From Acutalibacteraceae bacterium (GTDB lineage Bacteria > Bacillota > Clostridia > Oscillospirales > Acutalibacteraceae): a DNA stretch of 64,000 bases. The notes below the pieces were generated by a model. That model was not told the DNA's origin. It saw only the letters and a program-made list of their open reading frames with translations, and did not search any database. Shown piece by piece: positions 2,564 to 43,974 of the stretch; the stretch's first letter is position 1, and every line of letters starts with the position of its first letter. The DNA lies in assembly GCA_045656265.1 (NCBI GenBank), contig JAZOQV010000055.1, positions 4,541-68,540 of the forward strand. The letters run 5' to 3'. Made by a program: the position numbers and the translations under genes.

Positions 2564-4420
2564 ATGTTTTTACCTATTTCAAAAAAAGATATGGATATAA
2601 GAGGTTGGGAGCAGTGCGATTTTATAATCGTAACGGGCGACGCGTACGTCGACCACCCAACCTTTGGTACCGCGATAATTTCTAGGGTACTTGAAAATGC
2701 GGGTTACAAAGTCGGTATTATTTCCCAACCAAATTGGAAAAGTGATACCGACTTTTTAAAACTTGGCACACCAAAGTATGCATTTATGGTTAATGCGGGT
2801 AATATTGATTCAATGGTGGCGCACTATACCGCCGCCAAGCGCAAGCGTAGTACCGATGCATATTCGCCCGGTAATAAAATGGGCCTAAGACCCGATAGGG
2901 CGGTAACGGTGTATTCTAATAAAATACGCGAACTGTTCCCAAATATGCCTATTATAATCGGTGGCGTAGAAGCATCATTGCGCCGTTTTGCCCATTATGA
3001 TTATTGGGCAGATACCGTTATGCCATCTGTTCTTATTGACAGTAAGGCGGATATACTTTCGTTCGGTATGGGCGAAAAGCAAACGTTAGAGATTGCAGAA
3101 AATTTAAGTAGTGGTAAAGGCGTAGCGGCTTTGCGTGATATACTTGGTATATGTTATGTTACGGATAACGCCGAGGGTGTTCGTGGTATAACCTTGCCTT
3201 CGTTTGACTCTTGCCAAAAATCTAAAGAAAAGTATGCAGAGGCATGCAGAATAGAGTATGACGAGCAGGATGCAGTTCGCGGAAAGCGTTTAATTCAGCA
3301 ACACGGCAAACGCTATTTAATACAAAACCCGCCAATGCCACCACTAACCACCGAGGAATTAGACAAAGTATATGAACTGCCTTTCGAAAGGTATTATCAC
3401 CCAAGTTATGAGAAACTCGGTGGCGTGCCTGCGATAGAAGAGGTAGAATTTTCTATAACCCACAATCGCGGTTGCTTTGGTGCTTGCAATTTCTGTTCTA
3501 TTGCATTTCACCAAGGTAGACAGATTGCGGTAAGAAGCAAAGAATCGGTGCTAAAAGAAGCGAAAATGCTAACTAAAAATCCGCATTTTAAGGGCTATAT
3601 TCACGACGTCGGCGGCCCTACTGCTAACTTTAGAAGCCCCTCTTGTAAGCATCAGTTAAAAAATGGACTTTGTAAGGGTAAAAAGTGTTTAGCCCCAACC
3701 CCTTGTAAAAATTTAGAGGTTGACCATAGCGAGTATATAGATATACTAAACGAGATGCGAAATATACCTAAAATTAAAAAGGTGTTTATTCGCTCGGGCG
3801 TTAGGTTTGATTATCTTCTTGAAGATAAAAGCCGCGAGTTTTTAAAAACTCTTGTAAGGCACCACGTTAGCGGTCAGTTAAAGGTTGCGCCAGAACATTG
3901 TTCTGCGGCGGTACTTGATAAAATGGGTAAACCGCATATTGAAACCTATAAACGCTTTGCAGACGAGTTCTATAAGGTTACTAAAGGTATGGGGAAAGAG
4001 CAGTATTTGGTACCATATTTAATGTCTAGCCACCCTGGTAGTACTTTGCGTGATGCGATAGAGTTAGCGCTATTTTTAAAGCGAGAAAAAATAAGACCCG
4101 AACAGGTGCAAGATTTTTACCCAACACCGGGCACCATCTCTACTGCTATGTATTATACAGGTTTAGACCCACATACTATGAAGGCTGTGTTTGTTCCAAA
4201 AACTATGGAAGAAAAACAATTACAACGCGCATTACTTCAATATTATAAACCCGAAAATCGCGAACTTATTATAAAGGCATTGCGAAAAGCGGGTAGATTA
4301 GACCTTATCGGTAGTGGCAAAAATTGCTTAGTAATGGGCAGAACTAATAATACTAAAAACCAAAAAGCCAAACCAAAAAGCCGAATGGGCGGTAAGTGGG
4401 ATGGCAAAAAGCGTAGATAG
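2564..4420 (+). CDS. ygiQ: YgiQ/UPF0313 family radical SAM protein
   Basis: 618 aa. CxxxCxxC motif (CFGACNFCSI) mid-protein and a basic C-terminal tail, the layout typical of YgiQ. Starts 3 nt after the ftsK stop. Confidence 0.85.
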   Translation: MFLPISKKDMDIRGWEQCDFIIVTGDAYVDHPTFGTAIISRVLENAGYKVGIISQPNWKSDTDFLKLGTPKYAFMVNAGNIDSMVAHYTAAKRKRSTDAYSPGNKMGLRPDRAVTVYSNKIRELFPNMPIIIGGVEASLRRFAHYDYWADTVMPSVLIDSKADILSFGMGEKQTLEIAENLSSGKGVAALRDILGICYVTDNAEGVRGITLPSFDSCQKSKEKYAEACRIEYDEQDAVRGKRLIQQHGKRYLIQNPPMPPLTTEELDKVYELPFERYYHPSYEKLGGVPAIEEVEFSITHNRGCFGACNFCSIAFHQGRQIAVRSKESVLKEAKMLTKNPHFKGYIHDVGGPTANFRSPSCKHQLKNGLCKGKKCLAPTPCKNLEVDHSEYIDILNEMRNIPKIKKVFIRSGVRFDYLLEDKSREFLKTLVRHHVSGQLKVAPEHCSAAVLDKMGKPHIETYKRFADEFYKVTKGMGKEQYLVPYLMSSHPGSTLRDAIELALFLKREKIRPEQVQDFYPTPGTISTAMYYTGLDPHTMKAVFVPKTMEEKQLQRALLQYYKPENRELIIKALRKAGRLDLIGSGKNCLVMGRTNNTKNQKAKPKSRMGGKWDGKKRR

Positions 4421-4429
4421 GTGATCGGT

Positions 4430-4639
4430 ATGATTATTGTTGATAGAATAGAAAATGGTTTTGCGGTTTGCGAGATTGATAATGAGTTTACCGAAATATC
4501 ACTTCTAGATATTAGCGGTAATGTCCGAGAGGGAGCAGTGCTTATTAAAACCAACGGTAATTATGTTGTAGATGAAGATAGTACCTCTCAACGCAAAAAA
4601 GATATATTCGAAAAACAACGTAGATTATTTAGCAAATAA
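4430..4639 (+). CDS. DUF3006-like small protein
   Basis: Starts MIIVDRIENGFAVCEI. AGGTGA RBS lies 7 nt upstream of ATG 4430 (the track ORF starts at GTG 4421). The N-terminal pattern is typical of DUF3006. Confidence 0.6.
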   Translation: MIIVDRIENGFAVCEIDNEFTEISLLDISGNVREGAVLIKTNGNYVVDEDSTSQRKKDIFEKQRRLFSK

Positions 4640-4678: not shown

Positions 4679-6259
4679 TTAAATATCCAAATTATCTTTT
4701 TCTGTAACTTTTCTACAACTTATAAATTTAACGGCGGGTATTTTTTTTTCGCCTCTTGAAACAAAGCGGTTGCCGTGTATCTCAACGTTATCCGAAGAAG
4801 AAACGGTAATCATATTGTTTTTCATACGGCGGAAGGTGTTGTTTTCAATTTTTATGTTTTTGTGTAATCCTGTAATCTTTTCGTCGTTTCCGTCGTGCTT
4901 AGTAAACACACCAATTCCTGGTGAATTAACGTCAATATAAGCACATTTTTCAATAATATTATCGTGCATATAAAAGTTAGTAGCAGGGCCAACTTCATAC
5001 CAGTAACCAAAACAGCAAGCAACCTTAACCGCAGCGTTAGACAAACCGAAGAATTTAGAGTTTTTAATTTCTACATTGTCCGTTTGAATTACAAAGCCGC
5101 GCGAGCGAGTGTTTTTAATCTCGCAATCTGATATATCACAAGCAACAGTCAAGGTGTGGTTTTGCATAACGTCTTTGGGTTTTAACTCGCCTTGCAAATT
5201 TTCATAGGTTATATATCCGTTGGAGTAATCTGCAACTGTAAAAGTACCGGTATTTTGCATTGTTATCGGGTCAAAAACCTTAATAGTATCGCCCTTTGCG
5301 CACCAGTTTTCTTTAAGTTTACCGTCGGGGCTTTTTTTACAGTAGTTGCATTTGATTTTTCTCTCATCAAAATCTACATCTGTGCAGGTGCCCGCAATGG
5401 TGTGAATGTTAAGTGCATCGTCGCCCATACCGTCAAATACGCAATTTTTCATTATAAACTTGCCCATAGCGCCTGTTAAGTGGATGCCGTCGCAGTTGCA
5501 AGCCATAAGTGAATGACTGCCGTCTTTTTTTATCATTTTGACGCCATCTATTGTTAAGTTGTTGCATCTCGGGAACACCATAATACCCATGCCTGGGGTC
5601 GAAAACATAGTAATATTTTTTAGAACAGTATCGTTGCTGTCCTTTAAAACAATAACGCTTGGCCCGTACATAGTATGGCGAATACAAAGTCTGTTTCCAA
5701 CCTCTAATTCGCCAAAAGAACTAACCTCGAAATACACTTTAAAGGTGTTGTTGCCAAGGTAATCGTATTTAGCGCCCCAGTAGGTGCATGCACACAATAC
5801 TTCGTCTTGAACAACTGTAATTATATTTGGGTCGGGGTGCTTTTGGTAGTAACCAAAACGATAGGGAGTGCCTTCATCATCTATCGCGTTAAAAGATAAA
5901 AAGAGTTCGTTGCCCTTCATATTGTAAACGTCATCAACTTCTAAAACTAATGCCTTTTCATCTAAAAGTATTTCTTTAACAGTTGCGGTAACATTTGTAG
6001 GAACGTCGGTGTCAAAATAAATATTTTTAAGTTGTAAGCCTTCGCAATCTGTAATTAAAAAAGCGTCAACACTTTCGGAAAAATGGTCAGAGTTAATGTA
6101 TTTAGTTGTAATTTTTGCGCCGCCGCCGTCTATTACAACGTCCTTTTTGCCGCTTATTATTATTCTTTTATCTAAATAAAAATCTTCACCATTAAGATTA
6201 AGCGCTTCGCCGTCTTTTAAATTGTCTATTAAATTTTGTAACTTTGCAGAAGTGTTCAT
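4679..6259 (-). CDS. right-handed parallel beta-helix repeat protein (pectate-lyase fold, possible glycan-active enzyme)
   Basis: 526 aa with no obvious signal peptide. Periodic short repeats (NLTIDGVKM, GIHLTGAMG, NCVFDGMGDDALNIH, VEIKNSKF, IKIENNTF, VEIHGNRF) typical of PbH1 beta-helix coils. Confidence 0.6.
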   Translation of the reverse strand: MNTSAKLQNLIDNLKDGEALNLNGEDFYLDKRIIISGKKDVVIDGGGAKITTKYINSDHFSESVDAFLITDCEGLQLKNIYFDTDVPTNVTATVKEILLDEKALVLEVDDVYNMKGNELFLSFNAIDDEGTPYRFGYYQKHPDPNIITVVQDEVLCACTYWGAKYDYLGNNTFKVYFEVSSFGELEVGNRLCIRHTMYGPSVIVLKDSNDTVLKNITMFSTPGMGIMVFPRCNNLTIDGVKMIKKDGSHSLMACNCDGIHLTGAMGKFIMKNCVFDGMGDDALNIHTIAGTCTDVDFDERKIKCNYCKKSPDGKLKENWCAKGDTIKVFDPITMQNTGTFTVADYSNGYITYENLQGELKPKDVMQNHTLTVACDISDCEIKNTRSRGFVIQTDNVEIKNSKFFGLSNAAVKVACCFGYWYEVGPATNFYMHDNIIEKCAYIDVNSPGIGVFTKHDGNDEKITGLHKNIKIENNTFRRMKNNMITVSSSDNVEIHGNRFVSRGEKKIPAVKFISCRKVTEKDNLDI

Positions 6260-7917: not shown

Positions 7918-8871
7918 ATGAAATATATGGTTGGTCTTAATTTTTCTAACGACCGTTTAACCGATTGTGTACTGGAAAATGCCGAAAAAATTTACGAAGT
8001 TTATTTTTCGTTTAGCAATTTTGCGAACGGCAGAAGCAATCAGTTACTTAATGAGGATATTACTCCTTGGGAAATGCAGAGCAAGCAATTAGAGGTTCTC
8101 AAAAAACTAAATGACAGTGGTATAGCCTTTAATATGCTATTTAACGCCAACTGTTATGGTAAAGACAGTCAATCGCGTGCATTCTTTAATAATGTGGGCA
8201 TGGCTATGGATTACATAAAAAGTAATTTTAATCTAAATTCAATTACCACCACCTCGCCACTTATCGCAAAATTTTCAAAAAATAATTTTAGCGATATAGA
8301 GGTGCGCGCTTCGGTAAATATGGAAATTGGCACCGTAGAGGGTATGGAATATGTCGCACCTTATTTTGATAGTTATTATGTAAGGCGCGAACTTAACCGA
8401 AATATAGATGCATTGCTCGAATTAAAAAATTGGGCAGATGCAAATGGTAAAGAATTGTACGGTCTAGGTAATAGCGGTTGCCTTAACTATTGTTCTGCGC
8501 ATGTTTTTCACGATAATCTGGTGTCGCATGAAGACGAAATTTCTAAAATGGATAACGCTTATAATTTTACAGGAATGTGTAAAGAATTTTTAAGTAACCC
8601 CGAAAACTATAAAAAACTTATTGATTATACTAACTTTATAAGACCCGAAGACGTAGATAAATATAATGGCATTTTTAAAGCAATAAAACTTGCAACAAGG
8701 GTGCACAGAAATCCCGTTACAGTTGTAGAAAGTTACGTAAGGGGCAAGTACTCGGGCAATATTTTGGATATTTTAGAGCCGCAACATAGCATATATCCTT
8801 ATGCTTTGCAAAATGGCGAGCCTTTAAAATTAGTAAATATGGAAGAAACATATTTTCTTGAAAGGGGATAA
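7918..8871 (+). CDS. hypothetical protein with weak peptidase-U32-like (TIM-barrel) resemblance
   Basis: 317 aa with GGGGTG RBS. By-eye parallels to U32 family blocks (EVYFSF..NGRS; AFNMLFNANC; EVRASVNMEIG..YVRRELNRN; GLGNSGCLNYCSAHVFH). The family call is tentative. Confidence 0.4.
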   Translation: MKYMVGLNFSNDRLTDCVLENAEKIYEVYFSFSNFANGRSNQLLNEDITPWEMQSKQLEVLKKLNDSGIAFNMLFNANCYGKDSQSRAFFNNVGMAMDYIKSNFNLNSITTTSPLIAKFSKNNFSDIEVRASVNMEIGTVEGMEYVAPYFDSYYVRRELNRNIDALLELKNWADANGKELYGLGNSGCLNYCSAHVFHDNLVSHEDEISKMDNAYNFTGMCKEFLSNPENYKKLIDYTNFIRPEDVDKYNGIFKAIKLATRVHRNPVTVVESYVRGKYSGNILDILEPQHSIYPYALQNGEPLKLVNMEETYFLERG

Positions 8872-8877
8872 ATATAA

Positions 8878-9957
8878 ATGCTTACATCTAAAATGATTAA
8901 AGAAGCGGCACTCGCTGCCGGCGCAGATATGTGTGGTATCGGCCCTATGTCGCGATTTGATGGTGCTCCAGATGATATGAATCCGCAGTTCCTTTTCCCA
9001 GAGGCGAAAAGTGTTATTGGATTTGTATTTAGGATTCCACGCGGCGTACAAAGAGGCATTGAGGAGGGAACACAATTCTTCCAATATCCTTCAATGGCTT
9101 ATGGCGGAATTAACGAAATTTTTGCGCCTGCAGTACTTTATAACGTAGGTAAACTTATAGAGGACGAGGGATATGAGGCTTTCGTTTACCGTAATACAGG
9201 TGCTCGTGGCTCGGTTTCTGATATGGATGGTAGAGAGGGTAGTACACTTTCTCCCGAAGAGCAGATAGAGGCCAACGACCAGGTTAAAAATGCAACTGCA
9301 CACCACCGTAGTGTTGAGTTTACAAGAGCGACAAGGGATATAAATGTGGCGCCTGACTTGCAGTTTCAGTTCCGTCTTGCAGCAGTTGCTTGCGGTCTAG
9401 GTGAAATTGGTTGGAGTAAAATGCTACTTACAAAAGATTTTGGACCTTTGCAAAGGGTCGCATTCCTATTTACTGATGCAGAACTTGAATATGACGATGT
9501 TTATAACGGAGAGCCACTTTGCCGTAAATGCGGCGCTTGCGTACGCGAGTGCCCGGGCGGTTGTATCCCACCAATCAACTCAGATAAAAAACTAACCGTT
9601 AATATCGGTGGCAAAATTTGCGAGTGGGGCGATATAGATATGTGGCGTTGCTACGCGTTTTACACCCATGCAGGTAGATACTATAACCCGTTTGTACCAA
9701 AGGAAGTATTTGATAAAAACGAAAACGGCAGCCTTGACCTACTTGAAGGGGTTACCGATATTGCCGATGAAACCGAGGTTGTAAAGGTTTATACCGCTTT
9801 GCAGAAGTATTTTCCAAGTTGGGTTGGCTATAATATGGCAAAATGCGGCGGTTGTATTAGAGGCTGTGTAGCAATGTTAGAGAAAAAAGGCGGCTGTATG
9901 GAAGATAGATTTAAAAATCCTTTACGTACAGGCAAAGCTTGGAAACTTGATAGATAG
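8878..9957 (+). CDS. QueG/reductive-dehalogenase-superfamily-like 4Fe-4S protein, paralog 1
   Basis: 359 aa. N-terminus MLTSKMIKEAALAAGADMCGIG resembles the QueG DUF1730 start. Also AAVACGLGEIGWSK, FGPLQRVAFLFTDAELEYD, CRKCGACVRECP, and a second Cys cluster CGGCIRGC. Confidence 0.6.
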   Translation: MLTSKMIKEAALAAGADMCGIGPMSRFDGAPDDMNPQFLFPEAKSVIGFVFRIPRGVQRGIEEGTQFFQYPSMAYGGINEIFAPAVLYNVGKLIEDEGYEAFVYRNTGARGSVSDMDGREGSTLSPEEQIEANDQVKNATAHHRSVEFTRATRDINVAPDLQFQFRLAAVACGLGEIGWSKMLLTKDFGPLQRVAFLFTDAELEYDDVYNGEPLCRKCGACVRECPGGCIPPINSDKKLTVNIGGKICEWGDIDMWRCYAFYTHAGRYYNPFVPKEVFDKNENGSLDLLEGVTDIADETEVVKVYTALQKYFPSWVGYNMAKCGGCIRGCVAMLEKKGGCMEDRFKNPLRTGKAWKLDR

Positions 9958-9969
9958 GGGGCGGCAGAT

Positions 9970-10863
9970 ATGTTAACAAGTGCATTTATTAAAGAAAAAG
10001 CACGCGAGTTGGGTGCTACTGTATGTGGTATCGGCAGAGTGTATGAAGAAGAAAACAAAGGCCGCGACCCTAAAATGATTTTACCTAACGCTAAAAGTAT
10101 TATAGGTTTCGGATTTGCAGTGCCAAAAGGACTTTATAAGGCAATGGATAATGGTAATCAATATTACTCATATACAAGCCTTGGCGTTAAGTATGAGGAC
10201 GAGGAACTAGCCGAGATATTCTTGCTAAAAATTGGTGGAATGATTGAAAACTTCGGCTATGATGCTTGTTTGCAAAAGTCGGTTCCTAACCTTAGAATTA
10301 AGGGCGATAAGGAAACCAATCCCGAGGTTGTTGATACATACGAACTTATTCACGCAGTACCGGTAGCAGAGGGTAAACCTACACCCGACGTTATTATCGA
10401 CTTTTCTAAAGCGGCTAAAGCCTGCGGTCTTGGCGAGGCAGGTCTTAACGGTAAAATTATAAACAAAAAGTATGGCCCGTTTATGCGTTATTGCTTTATA
10501 ATTACAGATGCCGAACTAGAGTATGACGAGCCGATTGCAGAGCCTATTTGCGATAAATGCGGTTTGTGTATTGCGGCTTGCCCCGGTAATGCCATTAGCG
10601 AAAATGGTCTAGATACTTGGCAGTGCAGTGTTTATTATAAAGGCGTACATAAATCTAATCCCTTTATTACTGAAGACTTTTTAAAAGGCCACCCCGAACG
10701 CGAGCAGATTTTAAATGGCGAAAAACGCTTCGATAGTGTTAGTGCAAGAGAAATCTATAAGCAAATAAACTTTTTACCAAACACACAGTGGGGTTATTCG
10801 CCCTGCCTTTGCGGTAAAAAATGCGATATTGCCTGCTATAAGCATTTGATAGGAGAGCTATAA
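9970..10863 (+). CDS. QueG/reductive-dehalogenase-superfamily-like 4Fe-4S protein, paralog 2
   Basis: 297 aa. AAKACGLGEAG, FGPFMRYCFIITDAELEYD, CDKCGLCIAACPGNAI, WQCSVYY, CLCGKKCDIAC. Alignable by eye to both neighbours. Confidence 0.6.
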   Translation: MLTSAFIKEKARELGATVCGIGRVYEEENKGRDPKMILPNAKSIIGFGFAVPKGLYKAMDNGNQYYSYTSLGVKYEDEELAEIFLLKIGGMIENFGYDACLQKSVPNLRIKGDKETNPEVVDTYELIHAVPVAEGKPTPDVIIDFSKAAKACGLGEAGLNGKIINKKYGPFMRYCFIITDAELEYDEPIAEPICDKCGLCIAACPGNAISENGLDTWQCSVYYKGVHKSNPFITEDFLKGHPEREQILNGEKRFDSVSAREIYKQINFLPNTQWGYSPCLCGKKCDIACYKHLIGEL

Positions 10864-10864
10864 T

Positions 10865-11800
10865 ATGAAAAATAAAATTATTGAACTAGCCAAAAAATGT
10901 AGTGCAGATATTGTTGGCTTTGCACCCGCTTCGCGTTTTGATAAAGACGATGCTATTTTTAAAATTATGCCCGAAACCAAAACTGTTATCGGCCTTGCAT
11001 TTCGTGTACTTCGCGGTGCTTATCGCGGTATAGAAGAGGGTAGTACCTATTATCAATATACAACTATGGGCGTTGAAAATATGGAAGAAACCATTATGCC
11101 TATGGCAAGCATCCGAGTTGCAAACTTAATTGAAGAAGAGGGCTTTATCGCTTTACCGCAACGCCGTCATCAACAAATTATGGCAGAGGGTAACAGTAAT
11201 AATCCGGAAGTTGCTTATGATTCAGTTTATAGAAACAAGCCACAAGAGGTGCAAATGGACTTTTTAGATGCAGCCGTTAAGTGCGGACTTGGCGAAAGAA
11301 GTTTTCATAATACGCTTTTAACCGATGATTTTGGACCAATGGTTAGATATTGTTTTATTTTGACCAATGCCGAAATAGAAAGCAGCGATATGGTTGAACC
11401 ACACCTTTGCGATGGTTGTGGCAAATGTGCCGCCGCTTGCCCGGGCAAAGCAATTAACGAACATGGCGAGGTTGACCCTTGGCAGTGCACTGTATATTAT
11501 AATGGTGCGAATGGTACTAAAAACCCATTTATGCCACCTGAAGCTTTTGAAGACTTTGAAAACCGCTTAGAGATTATAAGTGGCGAAGCAACGGTTGATC
11601 CCGAAACAGCCAGAAAAATACTTGATAACATTTATTTCTATCCGCCCGCACAACACGCTTATCAGTGTTCTATCTGCGGTAGGGCTTGCGACGTTGCCTG
11701 CTATATTCATTTAGAAGAGCAGGGCAAATTAAATAAGAAATTTAAAACACCATTTAGAAAAAGAGAAGAATGGCACTTTAAAATCGACGATTTTAAATAA
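10865..11800 (+). CDS. QueG/reductive-dehalogenase-superfamily-like 4Fe-4S protein, paralog 3
   Basis: 311 aa. AAVKCGLGERS, FGPMVRYCFILTNAEIE, CDGCGKCAAACPGKAI, WQCTVYY, CSICGRACDVAC. Confidence 0.6.
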   Translation: MKNKIIELAKKCSADIVGFAPASRFDKDDAIFKIMPETKTVIGLAFRVLRGAYRGIEEGSTYYQYTTMGVENMEETIMPMASIRVANLIEEEGFIALPQRRHQQIMAEGNSNNPEVAYDSVYRNKPQEVQMDFLDAAVKCGLGERSFHNTLLTDDFGPMVRYCFILTNAEIESSDMVEPHLCDGCGKCAAACPGKAINEHGEVDPWQCTVYYNGANGTKNPFMPPEAFEDFENRLEIISGEATVDPETARKILDNIYFYPPAQHAYQCSICGRACDVACYIHLEEQGKLNKKFKTPFRKREEWHFKIDDFK

Positions 11801-13583: not shown

Positions 13584-14213
13584 TTATTTAATCATATTGT
13601 CAATAATTTTAGAGATATAATCTACGTAAAGTTTTCCAATGAATTCCGAGCCTTTATCGTTAGGATGAACACCGTCGTTGCTAAAAGAGGTCGGCTCATC
13701 TCCAATAAATGCAGAGGCTAAAAGTCCGTCTGTTGGCAAATATACATCCGCATATTCGCGTGCAAGTTTGCGGATAATTTCAATCTTTGGCGCCAAATCT
13801 TCTCTAAAGAAAAGTTTATCAGGCACAGGGATTAAGAAAGGTTCCATCATCATAAGTTTTGCGTGTGTTTTTTCTTTAATGGTATCTAAAATAGTGCGAT
13901 AACGTTCTTCAAAAAGGTTGTTGTCTAGCCATTTTTTACCTTCAGCATAATGCCAAACGTCGTTAATGCCTATAAGAATTGATACAATGTCGGGGTTAAT
14001 GTCAACTAAATCTTCTTGTAATCGATTTATAAGATGCATTGTTTGGTTACCGCTAACGCCGCGGTTTACAAACTCGAATTCAACCTCTGGGTACTTTTCT
14101 TTAAGTAGCGCCACGGCATATTTTGGATAGCCAAGACCTATGTAATTCGTATCTTCTCTGGTTCTAAAGCAATCGGTAATACTATCGCCTTGAAATAAAA
14201 GTTTAATTTTCAT
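13584..14213 (-). CDS. SGNH/GDSL family hydrolase
   Basis: Starts MKIKLLFQGDSITD (block I GDS), with GINDVWH and DGVHPN blocks. GGAGG RBS before ATG 14213 (the track ORF extends to 14255). Confidence 0.8.
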   Translation of the reverse strand: MKIKLLFQGDSITDCFRTREDTNYIGLGYPKYAVALLKEKYPEVEFEFVNRGVSGNQTMHLINRLQEDLVDINPDIVSILIGINDVWHYAEGKKWLDNNLFEERYRTILDTIKEKTHAKLMMMEPFLIPVPDKLFFREDLAPKIEIIRKLAREYADVYLPTDGLLASAFIGDEPTSFSNDGVHPNDKGSEFIGKLYVDYISKIIDNMIK

Positions 14214-14429
14214 AATGATTACCTCCAACGAGCATTTCTTAAGTTTTTTATACACCTTTTATTATTAAAAGTCAAGGTTTAAAATGGTTGAAAAAGCAAG
14301 TTTATTTTAGCACTTAAGTACCCAAAGTTTGATTACCGCAAGGCACTTTCGTAACGTGCCTGGTAAATACGCTTTTAATGGATGATAAAAAATGAAAAAG
14401 CACCAAACCAAAGGTCGAGGCTTTTTCGT

Positions 14430-14446
14430 TGGCAGCGGAATAGTGG
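14430..14446 (-). pseudogene. remnant of tRNA-Gln 3' end
   Basis: The minus-sense sequence CCACTATTCCGCTGCCA matches the 3' acceptor strand, discriminator and CCA of the intact tRNA-Gln (CCCTATTCCGCTGCCA). Confidence 0.5.
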
Positions 14447-14470
14447 CTTTTGGTGCAAAGTAAAATAATA

Positions 14471-14586
14471 TTTACGGGATACTCTCCGTCGGCGTTGTTT
14501 TGACCGCTATTGGCAGTGCCCAAAACAATTCGCCTTACTCGAGACTTCGTAGTCCAAACTGCTTCGCATTTTGGCTACTTCGACGA
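14471..14586 (-). repeat. 116-nt structured element, copy A
   Basis: Gapless alignment to 14762-14877 (90/116 identical by hand count). Two stems are kept by compensatory changes. The strand is inferred from the tRNA and promoter orientation only. Confidence 0.6.
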
Positions 14587-14612
14587 TCGTTTTCGACTTT
14601 GGTCGAAAACGA
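14587..14612. other. perfect 11-bp hairpin
   Basis: TCGTTTTCGAC-TTTG-GTCGAAAACGA, abutting copy A. No U-tract follows. Confidence 0.5.
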
Positions 14613-14638
14613 TTCTCATCCAATCTACTCCATTACAA

Positions 14639-14676
14639 AAACAAATAGCCACCCCTAGATGGATGACTATTTGTTT
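14639..14676 (-). terminator. intrinsic terminator directly after tRNA-Gln
   Basis: Minus-sense AAACAAATAG...CTATTTGTTT 10-bp stem followed by TTGT. Confidence 0.6.
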
Positions 14677-14750
14677 TGGCAGCGGAATAGGGATTCGAAC
14701 CCCAACAAACAGAGTCAGAGTCTGTCGTGCTACCGTTACACAATTCCGCT
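14677..14750 (-). tRNA. tRNA-Gln (anticodon CUG)
   Basis: 74 nt cloverleaf by hand: acceptor AGCGGAA/TTCCGCT, anticodon stem ACAGA/TCTGT with loop CTCTGAC, T-arm TGGGG-TTCGAAT-CCCTA, encoded CCA. Confidence 0.85.
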
Positions 14751-14761
14751 ATATAAACTTT

Positions 14762-14877
14762 TTTACGGGATACTCTGTGCCTGCATTATTTCGACCGCCC
14801 TTGGCAGTACCCGAAATAATTTGCAGTGCTCGAGACTTCACAGTCCGCCTCGCTTCGCGTTTCGGCTGCTTCGACGA
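14762..14877 (-). repeat. 116-nt structured element, copy A'
   Basis: Fused at its minus-sense 5' end to the truncated tRNA-Gln (junction GGGGTTCG|TCGAAG). See copy A. Confidence 0.6.
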
Positions 14878-14929
14878 ACCCCAACAAACAGAGTCAGAGT
14901 CTGTCGTGCTACCGTTACACAATTCCGCT
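14875..14929 (-). pseudogene. 5' 55 nt of tRNA-Gln, truncated in the T-loop
   Basis: Identical to positions 1-55 of the intact gene. It continues into element A' instead of the T-loop and acceptor 3' strand. Confidence 0.7.
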
Positions 14930-14979
14930 AGGTTTTAAGTTGTTTTGTTACTCGCTTATTATCTACGGGCAACGATAAT

Positions 14980-15007
14980 ATTATACATCATTTACCGCTT
15001 TTGTCAA
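14980..15007 (-). promoter_or_regulatory. sigma-A promoter reading into the tRNA-Gln locus
   Basis: Minus-sense TTGACA, 16 nt spacer, TATAAT. Confidence 0.55.
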
Positions 15008-15065
15008 GCATTTTTTTACAAAAATTAAACGCACCCCAAATTTTTTCTGAGGTGCGTTTGTGTTT

Positions 15066-16058
15066 TTAAAGTAATTCTTTACGTAGCTGCTCTGCCGACT
15101 TGTTTGAGAGGTAGGCAGGGGGGATGTCAAATACAGTTTTAGCCCCTTTGAAACCCTCTTTATTCATTCTAAAAGCTGCCCTTGCATAGCAAGCGATTAC
15201 ACTTGCTGTAAACTCGGGGTTAGAGCCAAGTTTTAGTGAATACTCAATCATTTGTGGTGTTTGTCCGTTTTCGCCGGTTACACCGCTTCTCATTACAAAG
15301 CCACCGTGTGGGAGGCTGCTATGGTCGCGCTTCATTTCTTCTAAAGATATAAAGTTAACCGTGGTGTCATAATCAGCAAAATAGTTTGGCATTGTAATAA
15401 TTTCGCGTTCAATTCTTTCTTTGTCGGCACCATCTTCTGCAACAACATAGCAAAGTCTTGTGTGCTTGTCGCGAGTAGTAAGTGTTGGATTTTCGCCATT
15501 TCTAACCTTAACTAAAGCATCATCTTTAGGGCAGGTGTATTGTCTTGCGTCAATAACGCCGTCTATTCGACGAATCGCATCAGAATGACCTTGGCTAACG
15601 CCTTTGCCCCAGAAGGTGTAATCGTTACCGTTAGGTAGTATGCAGTTGCCAAGCAAACGTTGTAAACTGAACATACCCGGGTCCCAACCAACCGAGATTA
15701 GCGCGATTTTGTTGCCTTTTTTAGCTGCATTATCGCAATTTTCAAAATGCTCGGGGATTTTAGCGTGAGTATCAAAACTGTCTACGATATTAAAATGCTC
15801 TGCAAACTCGGGGCTTTGTGTTGGTAGGTCGGTTGCGCTACCTCCACAAAGTATCATAACATCAATTTTGTCTTTTAAAGAAATAGCCTCTGAAATGTTA
15901 TAAACAGGCACATCGGGAGTTAAAGTTTTTAAAGTTTTGGGGTCGCGTCGTGTAAAGAAAGCAGCAAGCTTCATATCGGGGTTAGCGCGAACAGCAAGCT
16001 CGACACCTTTGCCAAGATTACCATAACCCATAATACCAATTCTAATTTGCTCTCCCAT
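15066..16058 (-). CDS. ddh: meso-diaminopimelate D-dehydrogenase
   Basis: Starts MGEQIRIGIMGYGNLGKG (Rossmann fold), with GWDPGMFS and WGKGVSQGHSDA blocks. AAGGTGA RBS before ATG 16058. Confidence 0.8.
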   Translation of the reverse strand: MGEQIRIGIMGYGNLGKGVELAVRANPDMKLAAFFTRRDPKTLKTLTPDVPVYNISEAISLKDKIDVMILCGGSATDLPTQSPEFAEHFNIVDSFDTHAKIPEHFENCDNAAKKGNKIALISVGWDPGMFSLQRLLGNCILPNGNDYTFWGKGVSQGHSDAIRRIDGVIDARQYTCPKDDALVKVRNGENPTLTTRDKHTRLCYVVAEDGADKERIEREIITMPNYFADYDTTVNFISLEEMKRDHSSLPHGGFVMRSGVTGENGQTPQMIEYSLKLGSNPEFTASVIACYARAAFRMNKEGFKGAKTVFDIPPAYLSNKSAEQLRKELL

Positions 16059-16209: not shown

Positions 16210-16557
16210 TGGTGGAGATGGCGGGAATTGTACCCGCGTCCAAAAGTATTTCCGAAAGGCTTCTCCGAGTGCAGACAGTCTATTAAGATTCCCCTCACTG
16301 CACGCCGACAGTCAGGCTTGCAGTTACGGTAGTTTCTAGTTCATGGCGTTGGTCGAAACATTCCTACGCGCACGTTCACCGCTAATCGACGCCCTTAAAA
16401 GACCGCGGTACTTCCGTTAAGGACGGCTGCTTAATTAAGCAGCAAGAGCAACTTTATTGTTGTCGTTTATTTTTTAAAAATTGCGGCTTTTTAAGCGGTA
16501 CCGCACCGCTACTCGCTTCCCTTGCTTCAACGCTCTTGTCGAAACCTTTGCATCCCC
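16210..16557 (-). ncRNA. ssrA: tmRNA (SsrA)
   Basis: Minus-sense 5' GGGGATGCAAAGGTTTCGAC and 3' GGACGCGGGTACAATTCCCGCCATCTCCACCA. The internal tag reading frame ends ...NDNNKVALAA-TAA. It lies next to smpB. Confidence 0.9.
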
Positions 16558-36611: not shown

Positions 36612-37082
36612 AAAATGCTCCCTTGCACAAATCAAAATTCTTTATATAGTTAATATACCATTTACAATAAATTTTTTCAAGATATATATGCAAATAGGGT
36701 TATCCCGAAATTACGGGATAACTCTATTTTTGATGGTATGACAAAAATCTTACCCACACATTGAAAATCATACCGTAGAGAATGTAGTTAAAAACTTTGT
36801 TTTTAAGCAGTAAAACCGCCGAAAGTATGAGGGCTATTCCTGCCTTAACTTATTTTAACAAAACAAGTTAAGATTAGTATACTTTTTTCCCTATTGTACC
36901 TCAACCATAGTATAAAAGCAGTGGAGGGGCAATAATTATTCATTATTCACCAGCATAAGCGACTTCATTTTTCATTATTCATTTGAAAATCCGTTTTTTA
37001 TTTTTTATTTAATGAATGATGAATATTGAAGAATAAATAATACAAACAAAAATCCGCTCTCTTTCGAGAACGGATTTTCGCT

Positions 37083-42540: not shown

Positions 42541-42548
42541 AAAAATAA

Positions 42549-42630
42549 CCCTTGTAACTGACGGAAGAAATGGTCTACCATTGTGGAGCAAGGGTGGGTG
42601 TAAAAACCTTTTTGCCGACCGTCTGGGCGC
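42549..42630 (+). promoter_or_regulatory. ZTP (pfl motif) riboswitch
   Basis: P1 CCCTTG...CAAGGG, ACTGACGGAA core, ATGGT/ACCAT hairpin, and distal GCCGACCGTCTGGGCG pseudoknot strand. This closely matches remembered ZTP riboswitch sequences and sits upstream of glyA-fhs. Confidence 0.85.
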
Positions 42631-42666
42631 ATTTATCTAATTTGTAGATAAGTGCGCCTTTTTTGT
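42624..42666 (+). terminator. riboswitch expression-platform terminator
   Basis: GGCGCA(T)TTATCTA / TAGATAAGTGCGCC stem followed by TTTTTT. Its 5' arm overlaps the pseudoknot strand. Confidence 0.8.
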
Positions 42667-42735
42667 GTCTTAACTCTTTACAAAATAATGTTTTATAGTT
42701 ATAATATAACTATAAATAAAATTGGAGGATGTATA

Positions 42736-43974
42736 ATGAACTTTTTTGAAGAATTAAAAAATTACGATGTTGATGTTGCCGCCGCTTGTCAAAAAGAATT
42801 AGAGCGTCAACAGAACAATATTGAACTTATCGCATCTGAAAACATTGTATCAAAGGCGGTTTTACTTGCTGCCGGAGGTGTTTTAACTAATAAATATGCC
42901 GAAGGTTATCCTGGCAAACGTTATTACGGCGGTTGCCAATGTGTTGATATTGTAGAGGATATTGCAAGAGAGCGCGCTAAAAAACTTTTTGGTGCAGAGT
43001 ATGCAAACGTTCAGCCACATAGTGGCGCAAATGCAAACCTAGCAGTTTTCTTTGCGCTTTTAAACCCGGGCGATACAGTAATGGGTATGAACTTGCAGCA
43101 GGGCGGACATCTTTCTCACGGTTCACCTGTAAATATCTCGGGTAAATATTTCAATATCGTGCCATACGGTGTAAATGATATTACCGAAACTATCGACTAT
43201 GACGAGATGGAAAAAACCGCGCTTGAGTGCAAACCAAAACTAATTGTAGTTGGTGCTAGCGCATATTCTCGTACTATTGATTTTGCCCGTTGCCGTGAAA
43301 TCGCCGATAAAGTTGGCGCTTACTTAATGGTTGATATGGCGCATATTGCAGGTCTTATCGCGGCAGGCGTACATCCTTCACCAGTGCCTTATGCCGATGT
43401 TGTAACAACCACAACACATAAAACTTTACGTGGACCAAGAGGCGGTATGATTCTTTGTCGTGAAGAACTTGGCAAGCAGATTGATAAAGCCGTGTTCCCG
43501 GGTACACAGGGCGGTCCTTTAATGCACATTATTGCCGCTAAGGCAGTAGCGTTAGGCGAGGCTTTAACCGACGAGTTCAAGGCTTACCAAACCCAAATTG
43601 TTAAAAATGCCGCCGCGCTTTGTGGACATTTAATTGATAACGGTATTGAGATAGTATCGGGCGGTACTGATAACCACCTAATGTTATTAAAACTTATCAA
43701 TAACGGAATTACAGGTAAAGAACTTGAACACCGTTTGGACGAAGTTCACATTACTGCTAACAAAAACACCATTCCTAACGACCCTGCAAGTCCGTTTGTT
43801 ACTAGCGGTCTTAGAATTGGTACACCTGCAGTTACTTCCCGTGGCTTCAAAGAGCCTGAAATGAAACTCATCGCAGGTTGGATAACCGACGTTATCAACG
43901 ATTTTGAAGGTAATAAAGATAGAATCACTTCTGAGGTCGTAGACCTTTGCAAAAAATTCCCAATCTATAAATAA
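42736..43974 (+). CDS. glyA: serine hydroxymethyltransferase
   Basis: [11 protein letters not shown] start with GGAGG RBS, and the [17 protein letters not shown] motif. The track ORF is extended upstream over the terminator. Confidence 0.95.

Follow-up and report, generated by a model that had tools for sequence, protein, structure and literature searches.

Our analysis of a 64-kb stretch of the genome of an Acutalibacteraceae bacterium (contig JAZOQV010000055.1, positions 4,541 to 68,540; hereafter the window) showed that two related sequences at its tRNA-Gln locus, A and A', are old, diverged copies of an undescribed element of ~150 nucleotides (nt) found in the 3' flanks of tRNA genes in the Acutalibacteraceae and related Oscillospirales. 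The structure of the element is under selection, and the arrangement in the window, compared with that in relatives, shows one intact copy (A) and one recombination-derived fusion (A'). Both sequences had been noticed in a first-pass annotation, made from the letters of the window, as a gapless pair of 116 nt (A, 14471 to 14586; A', 14762 to 14877) with 90/116 positions identical and with compensatory differences. These observations were borne out: the identity is 78%, and RNAalifold places 32 pairs, 8 of which have changed on both sides with the pair kept, accounting for 16 of the 26 differing positions. The unit of 116 nt was too small; the native unit of ~150 nt includes a hairpin, P1, and a closing helix, P0.

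On the tRNA-sense strand, the element is modeled as a four-way junction of helices P0 to P3. The unit begins with a reverse complement of the tRNA 3' strand, of variable extent, followed by GGGAT, GA, and P1, a GAAC..GTTC hairpin of variable length that often closes on a C-GNA-G triloop and whose 3' strand is like the T-arm start GGGUUCG. After P1 come G-TCGAAG, P2, T-GAAGT, P3, AGAGT, ATCCC, and G, and the 3' end is a forward copy of the tRNA 3' strand that ranges from a few nucleotides up to the CCA. GGGAU and AUCCC form the closing helix P0; P2 has 13 bp, a conserved bulged A, and the loop GCGATA; and the long P3 consists of a CUC/GAG base, internal loops, a 9-bp P3a, and a 6-bp P3b. The joining strands G-UCGAAG and U-GAAGU and the tail AGAGU are near-invariant.

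Covariation carries the claim of selection. In a seed of 10 sequences with a manual structure, 93.2% of the cells were paired, and double changes occurred in 15 pairs versus 6.1 in shuffles. The covariance model built from this seed gave 20 matches in 28 sources, with just the two known copies in the window. Across 19 distinct sequences, 91.4% of the cells were paired and double changes were seen in 29/50 pairs (101 cells), against 16.2 in shuffles (0/500 as high) and 7 to 15 pairs in slid controls; these pairs are spread over P2 (10/13), P3a (7/9), and P3b (5/6). An extra pair joins the base after CUCGAG to the base 4 nt before AGAG, with C-G/U-A covariation in 20/20 sequences. In strength the covariation equals that of curated RNA families and goes far beyond what two copies could show, so that the selection on structure proposed from A and A' now has a much broader basis; with compensatory covariation in several helices, the sequence belongs, in the generic sense, among structured noncoding elements under selection. 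Pairs in P1 to P3b included 573 Watson-Crick, 11 G.U, and 2 A.C pairs, and the excess of G.U over A.C therefore identifies the tRNA-sense strand as the folding strand. Several other pairings were considered and set aside: an alternative helix GUUCG/CGAGC proposed by RNAalifold (P1 shows covariation of both length and sequence, and in 20/20 sequences another partner pairs with the C/U after CUCGAG), a pseudoknot of the P2 loop GAUA with the tail UAUC (changes in the loop have no compensation in the tail), and a k-turn at the P3 base (in conflict with P0). The pairing of a loop GGG with the tail CCC suggested in the first-pass annotation likewise fails, as relatives have CGC, CGU, or GUU instead of GGG.

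The element belongs to a family that is found behind tRNA genes. Scanning of the pattern GAAGTCTCGAG-N45-65-AGTATCCCG over 185,579 species, with one genome per species, gave 23 loci, of which 17 are real homologs; an absence of homologs had been named in advance as an outcome that would speak against a structured element, and covariation was instead kept in the wider alignment. All 17 lie in metagenome-assembled genomes (MAGs) of Acutalibacteraceae, Oscillospiraceae, or "Clostridia," several recorded from ruminant gut samples. A tRNA gene on the same strand is visible upstream at 15 of the 17 loci: tRNA-Glu (L024 and L044), tRNA-Arg-ACG (L025, L028, and L030), tRNA-Ser-GGA (L026, L034, and L042), tRNA-Gln-CUG (L027, L031, L035, and L038), tRNA-Pro-CGG (L032 and L043), and tRNA-Ser-GCU (L037, partial). 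The remaining two fit the pattern: L033, which has no visible tRNA gene, resembles the Arg loci and is cut just before the tRNA position, and L039 has a 3' fragment of tRNA-Gln only. The element follows the tRNA at a distance of 36 to 52 nt at 13 loci, including copy A of the window, and lies directly after an intrinsic terminator. The tie to the tRNA-Gln T-loop proposed earlier thus stands as a tie to the T-arm, but not as one specific to Gln (six tRNA species are followed), and the element normally lies behind the terminator of the tRNA rather than inside the tRNA. Within the window, GAAGTCTCGAG occurs only in A and A' (0.24 occurrences expected by chance). Strict two-block patterns in the IMG/VR and JGI metagenomes gave only chance matches inside coding regions, and a pattern of the B type (a second core, described below) gave only chance matches in IMG/VR. 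BLAST of the locus against phage and plasmid collections returned matches to tRNA-Gln only; a 6-kb "Bacteriophage sp." record and a Subdoligranulum plasmid proved to hold ordinary tRNA loci that lack the modules.

Two tRNAs of a single MAG have copies behind them (L025 and L027). This MAG also contains an identical 27-nt hairpin repeat, AAACGGGAGGGGAAACCCCTCCCCTAC (L025, 5047 to 5073; L027, 2832 to 2858 and, on the minus strand, 1089 to 1115), which follows both of its A elements and has its third copy elsewhere in L027; this may be a repeat of that genome resembling the repetitive extragenic palindromic (REP) type.

The outer frame of the element is borrowed from the neighboring tRNA. P0 is often lengthened by reverse-complement and forward copies of the 3' strand of that tRNA and, being made from these copies, mimics its T-stem and acceptor. 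In L032 and L043, for example, the tail ATCCCGTCACCTCGACCA is the 3' end of tRNA-Pro, and in L028 the 3' end of tRNA-Arg recurs as its reverse complement, GCGCTTTAAGGGAT, in the 5' flank. Together, P0 and P1 mimic the T-arm and the acceptor 3' strand of the adjacent tRNA.

The window locus lies on the minus strand, and its parts are given here in transcription order. A sigma-70-type promoter, TTGACA-16-TATAAT (14980 to 15007; consensus match, 12/12), drives the locus and is the only promoter-like site on the minus strand between 14300 and 15120; the same promoter lies upstream of the intact tRNA-Gln in two relatives, L005 and L007. Next is a repeat, a dead copy of tRNA-Gln(CUG) (14875 to 14930) whose 5' part runs to the T-loop GGGGTTCG and is there joined to the core of A'. 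This copy is 100% identical to 14696 to 14751, including one base upstream of the tRNA, and gives a weak partial tRNA model match (model positions 10 to 42). A' (14762 to 14877) is an element core (J12, P2, J23, P3, and tail) without the 5' strands of P0 and P1 (cmsearch match, 14754 to 14887; 72.3 bits; E, 2.7e-22). An 11-nt spacer, AAAGTTTATAT (14751 to 14761), part of which (AGTTTATAT) is also found 5' of the B module in L005, connects A' to the intact tRNA-Gln(CUG) (14677 to 14750; called by ARAGORN; Rfam tRNA, 60.7 bits), so that A' sits between the sole promoter and the intact gene with no terminator intervening. The intrinsic terminator of this gene, T1 (14636 to 14676), has a terminator-like site at 14662 to 14649 and then a T run; the region also holds a longer inverted repeat, I1, and the orthologous terminator in L005 is 3' of the B module. 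The complete element A (14463 to 14626; cmsearch, 54.3 bits; E, 3.8e-16; full model, 1 to 153) follows, with the P0 5' strand GGAT at 14618 to 14621, P1 at 14586 to 14613, the core at 14471 to 14586, and the P0 3' strand ATCC(C) at 14476 to 14480. Its P1 is a perfect 12-bp inverted repeat (arms, 14586 to 14597 and 14602 to 14613; 4-nt loop) in the same position as the variable GAAC..GTTC P1 hairpin of all relatives, and the A ortholog in L005/L031 has the same long P1. At 27 nt from the end of the A core is a copy of the tRNA-Gln 3' end (CTATTCCGCTGCCA plus A; 14429 to 14443), a 15-nt exact match to 14676 to 14690 that is without AATCC and most of the T-stem 3' strand. The locus closes with a terminator, T2 (14387 to 14428; hairpin plus T run, read from the sequence), which is probably the ancestral tRNA-Gln terminator; T2-homologous sequence lies directly 3' of the intact tRNA-Gln in L005.

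The first-pass annotation had placed the promoter and the intact tRNA-Gln correctly and had recognized the smaller parts with slight deviations. For the dead tRNA copy, the identity and the break-off in the T-loop hold, but the length is 56 rather than 55 nt; the hairpin is present and perfect, but has 12 rather than 11 bp and is P1 of A rather than a separate feature; and the 3' remnant is present, but its exact match covers 15 rather than 17 nt. The comparison of tRNA-Gln loci that it had proposed showed that the arrays of L005 and L007 differ in their A and B content.

The tRNA 5' part passes into A' precisely within the T-loop, and a tRNA 3' end comes after A; together these might be read as a T-loop intron or as half of a split tRNA-Gln that yields a working tRNA by splicing or assembly. 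We consider this hardly credible. What follows A' is the spacer and a complete tRNA, and A' is not an intron-like insertion, as had been suggested, because no 3' exon comes after it. AATCC and most of the T-stem 3' strand are missing from the 3' remnant, A and A' are repeated in direct orientation instead of being complementary, and in relatives the element stands alone behind the terminators of six tRNAs; no pair of exons giving a cloverleaf was found, and ARAGORN calls one tRNA-Gln only. The run-on of tRNA into element is better explained as a secondary deletion or recombination. From GGGGTTCG on, A' matches L028-type elements without a difference for a further ~24 nt (GGGGTTCGTCGAAGCAGCCGAAA), and the junction GGGGTTCG itself is the P1 3' strand of L028, L030, and L033, while the same 8 nt form the T-stem and loop start of tRNA-Gln. 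This shared octamer indicates that the fusion arose by deletion or recombination between the T-arm and the P1 3' strand. In the simplest history, a second unit of tRNA-Gln, terminator, and element would have undergone a deletion between the identical octamers, with loss of the tRNA 3' end, the terminator, and the 5' strands of P0 and P1; such a deletion would thereby have brought A' inside the primary transcript of the surviving tRNA-Gln. The 3' remnant and T2 can be interpreted as the displaced original 3' end or as the end of a B module that has decayed: arrays of relatives end in B with the tRNA 3' end and the ancestral terminator (the order in L038 is tRNA-T-A-B-T), and L005/L031 still retain a 3' piece of B.

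The B module is a second structured core, unrelated to that of A, in the same T-arm frame. B modules were found in L005 (5245 to 5392), L007 (5262 to 5402), and L038 (1787 to 1928, minus strand), with a shortened copy in L039 near 2725 and Ser-locus variants in L037 (2737 to 2890 and 3040 to 3212). B starts with ATAGGGATTCGAACAAGG, contains the conserved motif CGTGGGCAA, and shows 10 compensatory pairs among three copies; it has no Rfam match. Its ends are ATAGGGATTCGAAC at the 5' side and AATCCCTATTCCGCTGCCA at the 3' side, and its closing helix is therefore the T-stem and 3' end of the tRNA itself; the 3' end of B comprises AATCCC, the full tRNA 3' end with CCA, and a terminator of its own. 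A small open reading frame (ORF) in B, with a Shine-Dalgarno sequence plus ATG in L005, was discounted, as it is missing from L007. In L039, the B that follows the A element is cut short by an insertion with a helix-turn-helix (HTH) gene.

Comparison of copies indicates that cores have moved or been exchanged between tRNA loci. The Arg (L028, L030, and L033), Gln (L027, L035, L038, and L039), and Glu (L044) cores are 82 to 89% alike, whereas the Arg copy of L025 is only 75% identical to the Arg copy of L028, and core identity does not track locus orthology. Gln-locus copies have the tail CCCGTTAA, derived from the tRNA-Arg 3' strand (CCCTTAAAG), and the invariant G after ATCCC is native to tRNA-Glu and tRNA-Pro only. 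The cores of L034 and L042 are bounded on both sides by directly repeated sequence (57 and 70 nt) that combines the terminator half, the reverse-complement end of the tRNA, and the 5' part of P0/P1; core-less "solo" frames, GGTGAGAACCCGTGGGGT|AGAGTATCCCG, occur in L042 as well; and in L038 the A element lies inside what in L007 is an uninterrupted B 5' frame. At the Ser loci the tRNA 3' end, the terminator, and a reverse-complement copy form palindromes with arms of 26 to 42 nt. The arrays of L005, L007, L037, and L038 terminate in perfect copies (18 to 19 nt) of the tRNA 3' end, and such copies occur in L032 and L043, too. Recombination with the T-arm-like frame has produced the tRNA fragments as by-products.

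Direct repeats of tRNA 3' ends and tRNA fragments could also be left by neutral decay, as attachment (att) site scars and local duplications from islands at tRNA-Gln with no function. L039 (oriented minus, ~4990 to 5045) does contain only the 3' 44 nt of tRNA-Gln, from the anticodon loop on, which looks like a classical island att fragment, and an integrase island lies near the locus in L005. Neutral decay, however, would not give 29 covarying pairs with 91% pairing over 19 sequences, nor would it keep junction strands invariant over six tRNA loci and many species; this explanation is strongly disfavored and has very little chance of being correct.

How the element acts is a matter of probability. 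We tentatively favor a hybrid reading, to which we give somewhat under an even chance, in which the element works as RNA and its T-arm-like frame drives its spread at the DNA level. The element RNA would be made from the tRNA transcription unit, normally via read-through of the tRNA terminator, and in the window A' would be part of the leader of the tRNA-Gln primary transcript. The tRNA-like P0 could provide defined ends or stability, and the conserved junction could be the site for a putative trans-acting partner. At the DNA level, the frame would recombine with real tRNA T-arms and other frames, which would move cores between tRNA loci and leave tRNA fragments behind. Transcription, processing, and action in trans of the element are inferred here. 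The orientation of the element favors a role tied to the tRNA: it is always that of the tRNA and follows neither GC skew nor gene-strand bias (in the window, the element-sense strand has a skew of -0.076, and most long ORFs are on the opposite strand), which argues for a link to tRNA polarity or transcription over the replication strand. Single-strand transposons, unlike the element, follow the replication strand. Also counted for RNA are the multihelix fold with its invariant joining strands, the tRNA 3' end and own terminator in which several modules end, and the position of A', whose transcription would be unavoidable. A reading of the ORF listing (without a Pfam scan) for long ORFs within 3.5 kb of 16 loci showed no integrase or transposase.

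Several observations weigh against action as RNA. A strong intrinsic terminator separates tRNA and element in every canonical locus and no promoter is evident, so RNA expression would depend on read-through. G.U pairs make up ~2% of the pairs in P1 to P3b (11 versus 573 Watson-Crick), which is low for RNA families, and most P1 and P3b hairpins close with loops of 3 nt, among them C(GNA)G and GCGAAGC, which are classic extra-stable DNA mini-hairpins. The 57- and 70-nt direct repeats around the cores of L034 and L042, the core-less solo frames, the palindromes, and the nested insertions and deletions are signatures at the DNA level.

The same observations make it possible that the element is instead folded single-stranded or cruciform DNA, a small nonautonomous recombination cassette whose hairpins are recognized by a recombinase or HUH enzyme encoded elsewhere and whose frame mimics the duplex target or att site from T-arm to 3' end; its structure would be conserved because only foldable copies keep moving. 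The position behind a terminator without a promoter, the rarity of G.T pairs, and the common GNA triloops would be expected of such a cassette, as would a frame built from reverse-complement and forward copies of the tRNA 3' part, the 26- to 42-nt Ser-locus palindromes that include the terminator, the cores between direct repeats beside solo frames, the position of A inside the 5' frame of B in L038 as compared with L007, and a similarity among copies that is independent of locus orthology. Arrays ending in a perfect tRNA 3' end and an apparent original terminator are likewise a signature of tRNA integration. Yet no recombinase or transposase was seen near the 16 loci (in the ORF listing, which was not Pfam scanned) or in the annotated part of the window; orientation goes with the tRNA and not the replication strand, unlike that of IS200/IS605-type single-strand elements; and P2 and P3 are unlike each other and are therefore not a pair of matching transposon ends. 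Few copies per genome, deep divergence, and compensatory changes point to long-term maintenance over recent bursts, and neither the A nor the B type was found on viral contigs.

A more specific proposal, that the element is a self-cleaving ribozyme or a processing signal that trims tRNA read-through or leader transcripts, appears improbable to us. The compact multihelix junction with near-invariant unpaired GUCGAAG, UGAAGUCUCGAG, and AGAGU is reminiscent of small ribozymes, the element is physically linked to tRNA transcription units, and A' of the window lies in the leader of the tRNA-Gln precursor. No Rfam 15 ribozyme model matches, however, even at E values up to 10; the hammerhead core and hairpin-ribozyme loops are unmatched by inspection; and canonical copies are cut off from the tRNA by the terminator. 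A partial likeness by eye to the hairpin-ribozyme or hammerhead core was dropped, as no model supports it.

We regard as rather unlikely, but worth stating, a wider proposal: a new class of tRNA-locus cassettes in which unrelated cores (A type and B type) share a common T-arm/acceptor-mimic frame and insert into or recombine with T-loop sequences of tRNA genes or with pseudo-T-arms by a dedicated, undescribed mechanism, possibly guided or catalyzed by the folded element. If correct, these would be the first bacterial elements targeting the tRNA T-loop.

Whichever molecule is active, the element is a well-supported, previously uncatalogued structured element in a poorly studied but abundant gut bacterial family, and its tie to the tRNA is unusual in that the frame is borrowed from the T-arm and 3' end of the neighboring gene and is used by a second core, B, as well. 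As RNA, it would be a new orphan class of noncoding RNA with a built-in tRNA mimic; as DNA, it would represent a recombination system working on T-arm hairpins. In both cases it accounts for tRNA gene fragments and tandem copies of 3' ends that are otherwise puzzling in these genomes and flags a source of tRNA-gene inactivation and duplication.

The genes around the locus are ordinary. Upstream are genes for a diaminopimelate dehydrogenase (DAPDH; 15066 to 16058), transfer-messenger RNA (tmRNA; 16210 to 16557), SmpB, an amidase, and a GHL10 protein; downstream are those for a GDSL lipase (13584 to 14213), DUF4363 and DUF421 proteins, and an HTH protein. Further genes between 0 and 34 kb are housekeeping genes (FtsK, a radical-SAM protein, rubrerythrin, a P-type ATPase, MscL, Fur, and others), and the parts of the window that were scanned yielded no gene for a recombinase, transposase, or reverse transcriptase. 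Homologs of DAPDH lead to uncultured Clostridia of the Ruminococcaceae/Acutalibacteraceae type; exact look-up of two flanking proteins returned no record. The order DAPDH, tRNA-Gln, GDSL is kept in two close relatives, L005 (DAPDH identity, 91%) and L007 (83%), and relatives at ≤78% identity, traced through DAPDH homologs, have other neighbors. L007 reads tRNA-Gln, terminator, B, terminator. In L005 the array runs promoter, intact tRNA-Gln, T2-like terminator, AGTTTATAT, B module, and T1-like terminator, followed by the long hairpin with the A ortholog and then by the 3' piece of B with the tRNA 3' end. T1 and T2 stand in exchanged positions in the window relative to L005, and the place of B in L005 is taken in the window by a whole tRNA; recombination between copies of the tRNA 3' end has evidently occurred.

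Some further features were noted in passing. L005 (600 to 3505) differs from the window upstream of DAPDH: in place of tmRNA and SmpB it encodes an HTH protein, an M78 peptidase, and a phage-type integrase, which probably mark a tmRNA-gene island. In L013, a relative at 78%, a 182-amino-acid ORF with a faint match to Y1 transposase (PF01797) directly follows DAPDH (3996 to 4544), and no tRNA-Gln is present there. The window has a ZMP/ZTP riboswitch on the plus strand (42544 to 42635; 57.6 bits) upstream of an ORF at 42688 to 43974 and, at 7918 to 11800 (plus strand), four ORFs in a row of 297 to 359 amino acids with no Pfam match at E values up to 1e-5. On the minus strand at 36925 to 37075, 3' of the tRNA-Thr(GGT) terminator, is an element rich in word repeats (attcatcattcat ... 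aatgaataatgaa ... gtcgctt) that shares 77% identity with the sequence following the module terminator of L043 (7440 to 7590). In L007 and L028, tRNA loci are followed by stretches laid out similarly but with different words, and in L028 and L038 there follows an ORF for a protein that looks, by eye only, like a four-helix bundle.

No known family accounts for the element, in agreement with the earlier statement that it could not be assigned to one. Rfam 15 comprises 4,227 models, among them those of every known small ribozyme and of HEARO/omega-type RNAs, ROOL, GOLLD, and raiA, and at its gathering thresholds the window matched only tRNA, tmRNA, and ZTP. Permissive scans of 14300 to 15100, L005, L007, and the canonical copy of L028 gave no credible match to the element. 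The only non-tRNA model touching A', RF03015 (Transposase-2 RNA; 19.6 bits; E, 0.21), was taken as a chance match, as it falls far below the gathering score of 42.7 and matches neither A nor the canonical L028 copy. Searches of the literature, together with systematic surveys of noncoding RNAs by the Breaker laboratory, turned up no description of such an element.

Among structured small bacterial repeats are REP sequences and bacterial interspersed mosaic elements (BIMEs), Correia elements, and bcr1 of Bacillus cereus, a repeat resembling transposable elements of the miniature inverted-repeat type. The present element is similarly short, noncoding, intergenic, and hairpin rich, with copies in one genome that differ by compensatory changes, but it has a very low copy number, lies exclusively behind tRNA genes, keeps a highly conserved unpaired junction, and shows no terminal inverted repeats or short target duplications. 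Nor does it resemble IS200/IS605 or palindrome-associated transposable elements: P2 and P3 are unrelated in sequence, the orientation is inconsistent with GC skew, and 17/17 homologs are without an ORF. Folded single-strand recombination sites are represented by integron attC and by CTX-phage attP(+). The element is like these in that its structure is kept while stem sequences vary, one strand is active, a stem reproduces the duplex target, and bulges are conserved; unlike them, it has no R/L boxes or GTTRRRY (GTTCGTC stands at the boundaries), no IntI/Xer context was found, and it folds as a four-way junction with an orientation that is not tied to replication. Known tRNA-like processing elements include plant mitochondrial t-elements, mascRNA-type mimics, and viral tRNA-like structures. 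The element shares with them a helix on a non-tRNA RNA that copies the acceptor and T-stem, sometimes to the CCA, and could recruit tRNA-processing enzymes; it differs in that mimicry is confined to the helix that closes a four-way junction, ~105 nt occupy the position of the T-loop, and it lies behind a terminator. Island att sites at tRNA genes, for which Williams reportedly defined sublocation classes in 2002 with crossover in the T-loop or 3' end, are a further point of comparison. Here the "island" is 300 to 500 bp of structured modules; the bounded segments have neither an integrase nor any ORF (the nearest window genes are those for DAPDH and the GDSL lipase), the pseudo-T-arm is interrupted by >100 nt, and the structure is under selection, all of which set the element apart from such sites. 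What it has in common with them is the direct repetition of tRNA 3' ends (15 nt in the window), the succession of intact tRNA, foreign DNA, displaced 3' end, and original terminator, and half-sites that resemble a T-stem.

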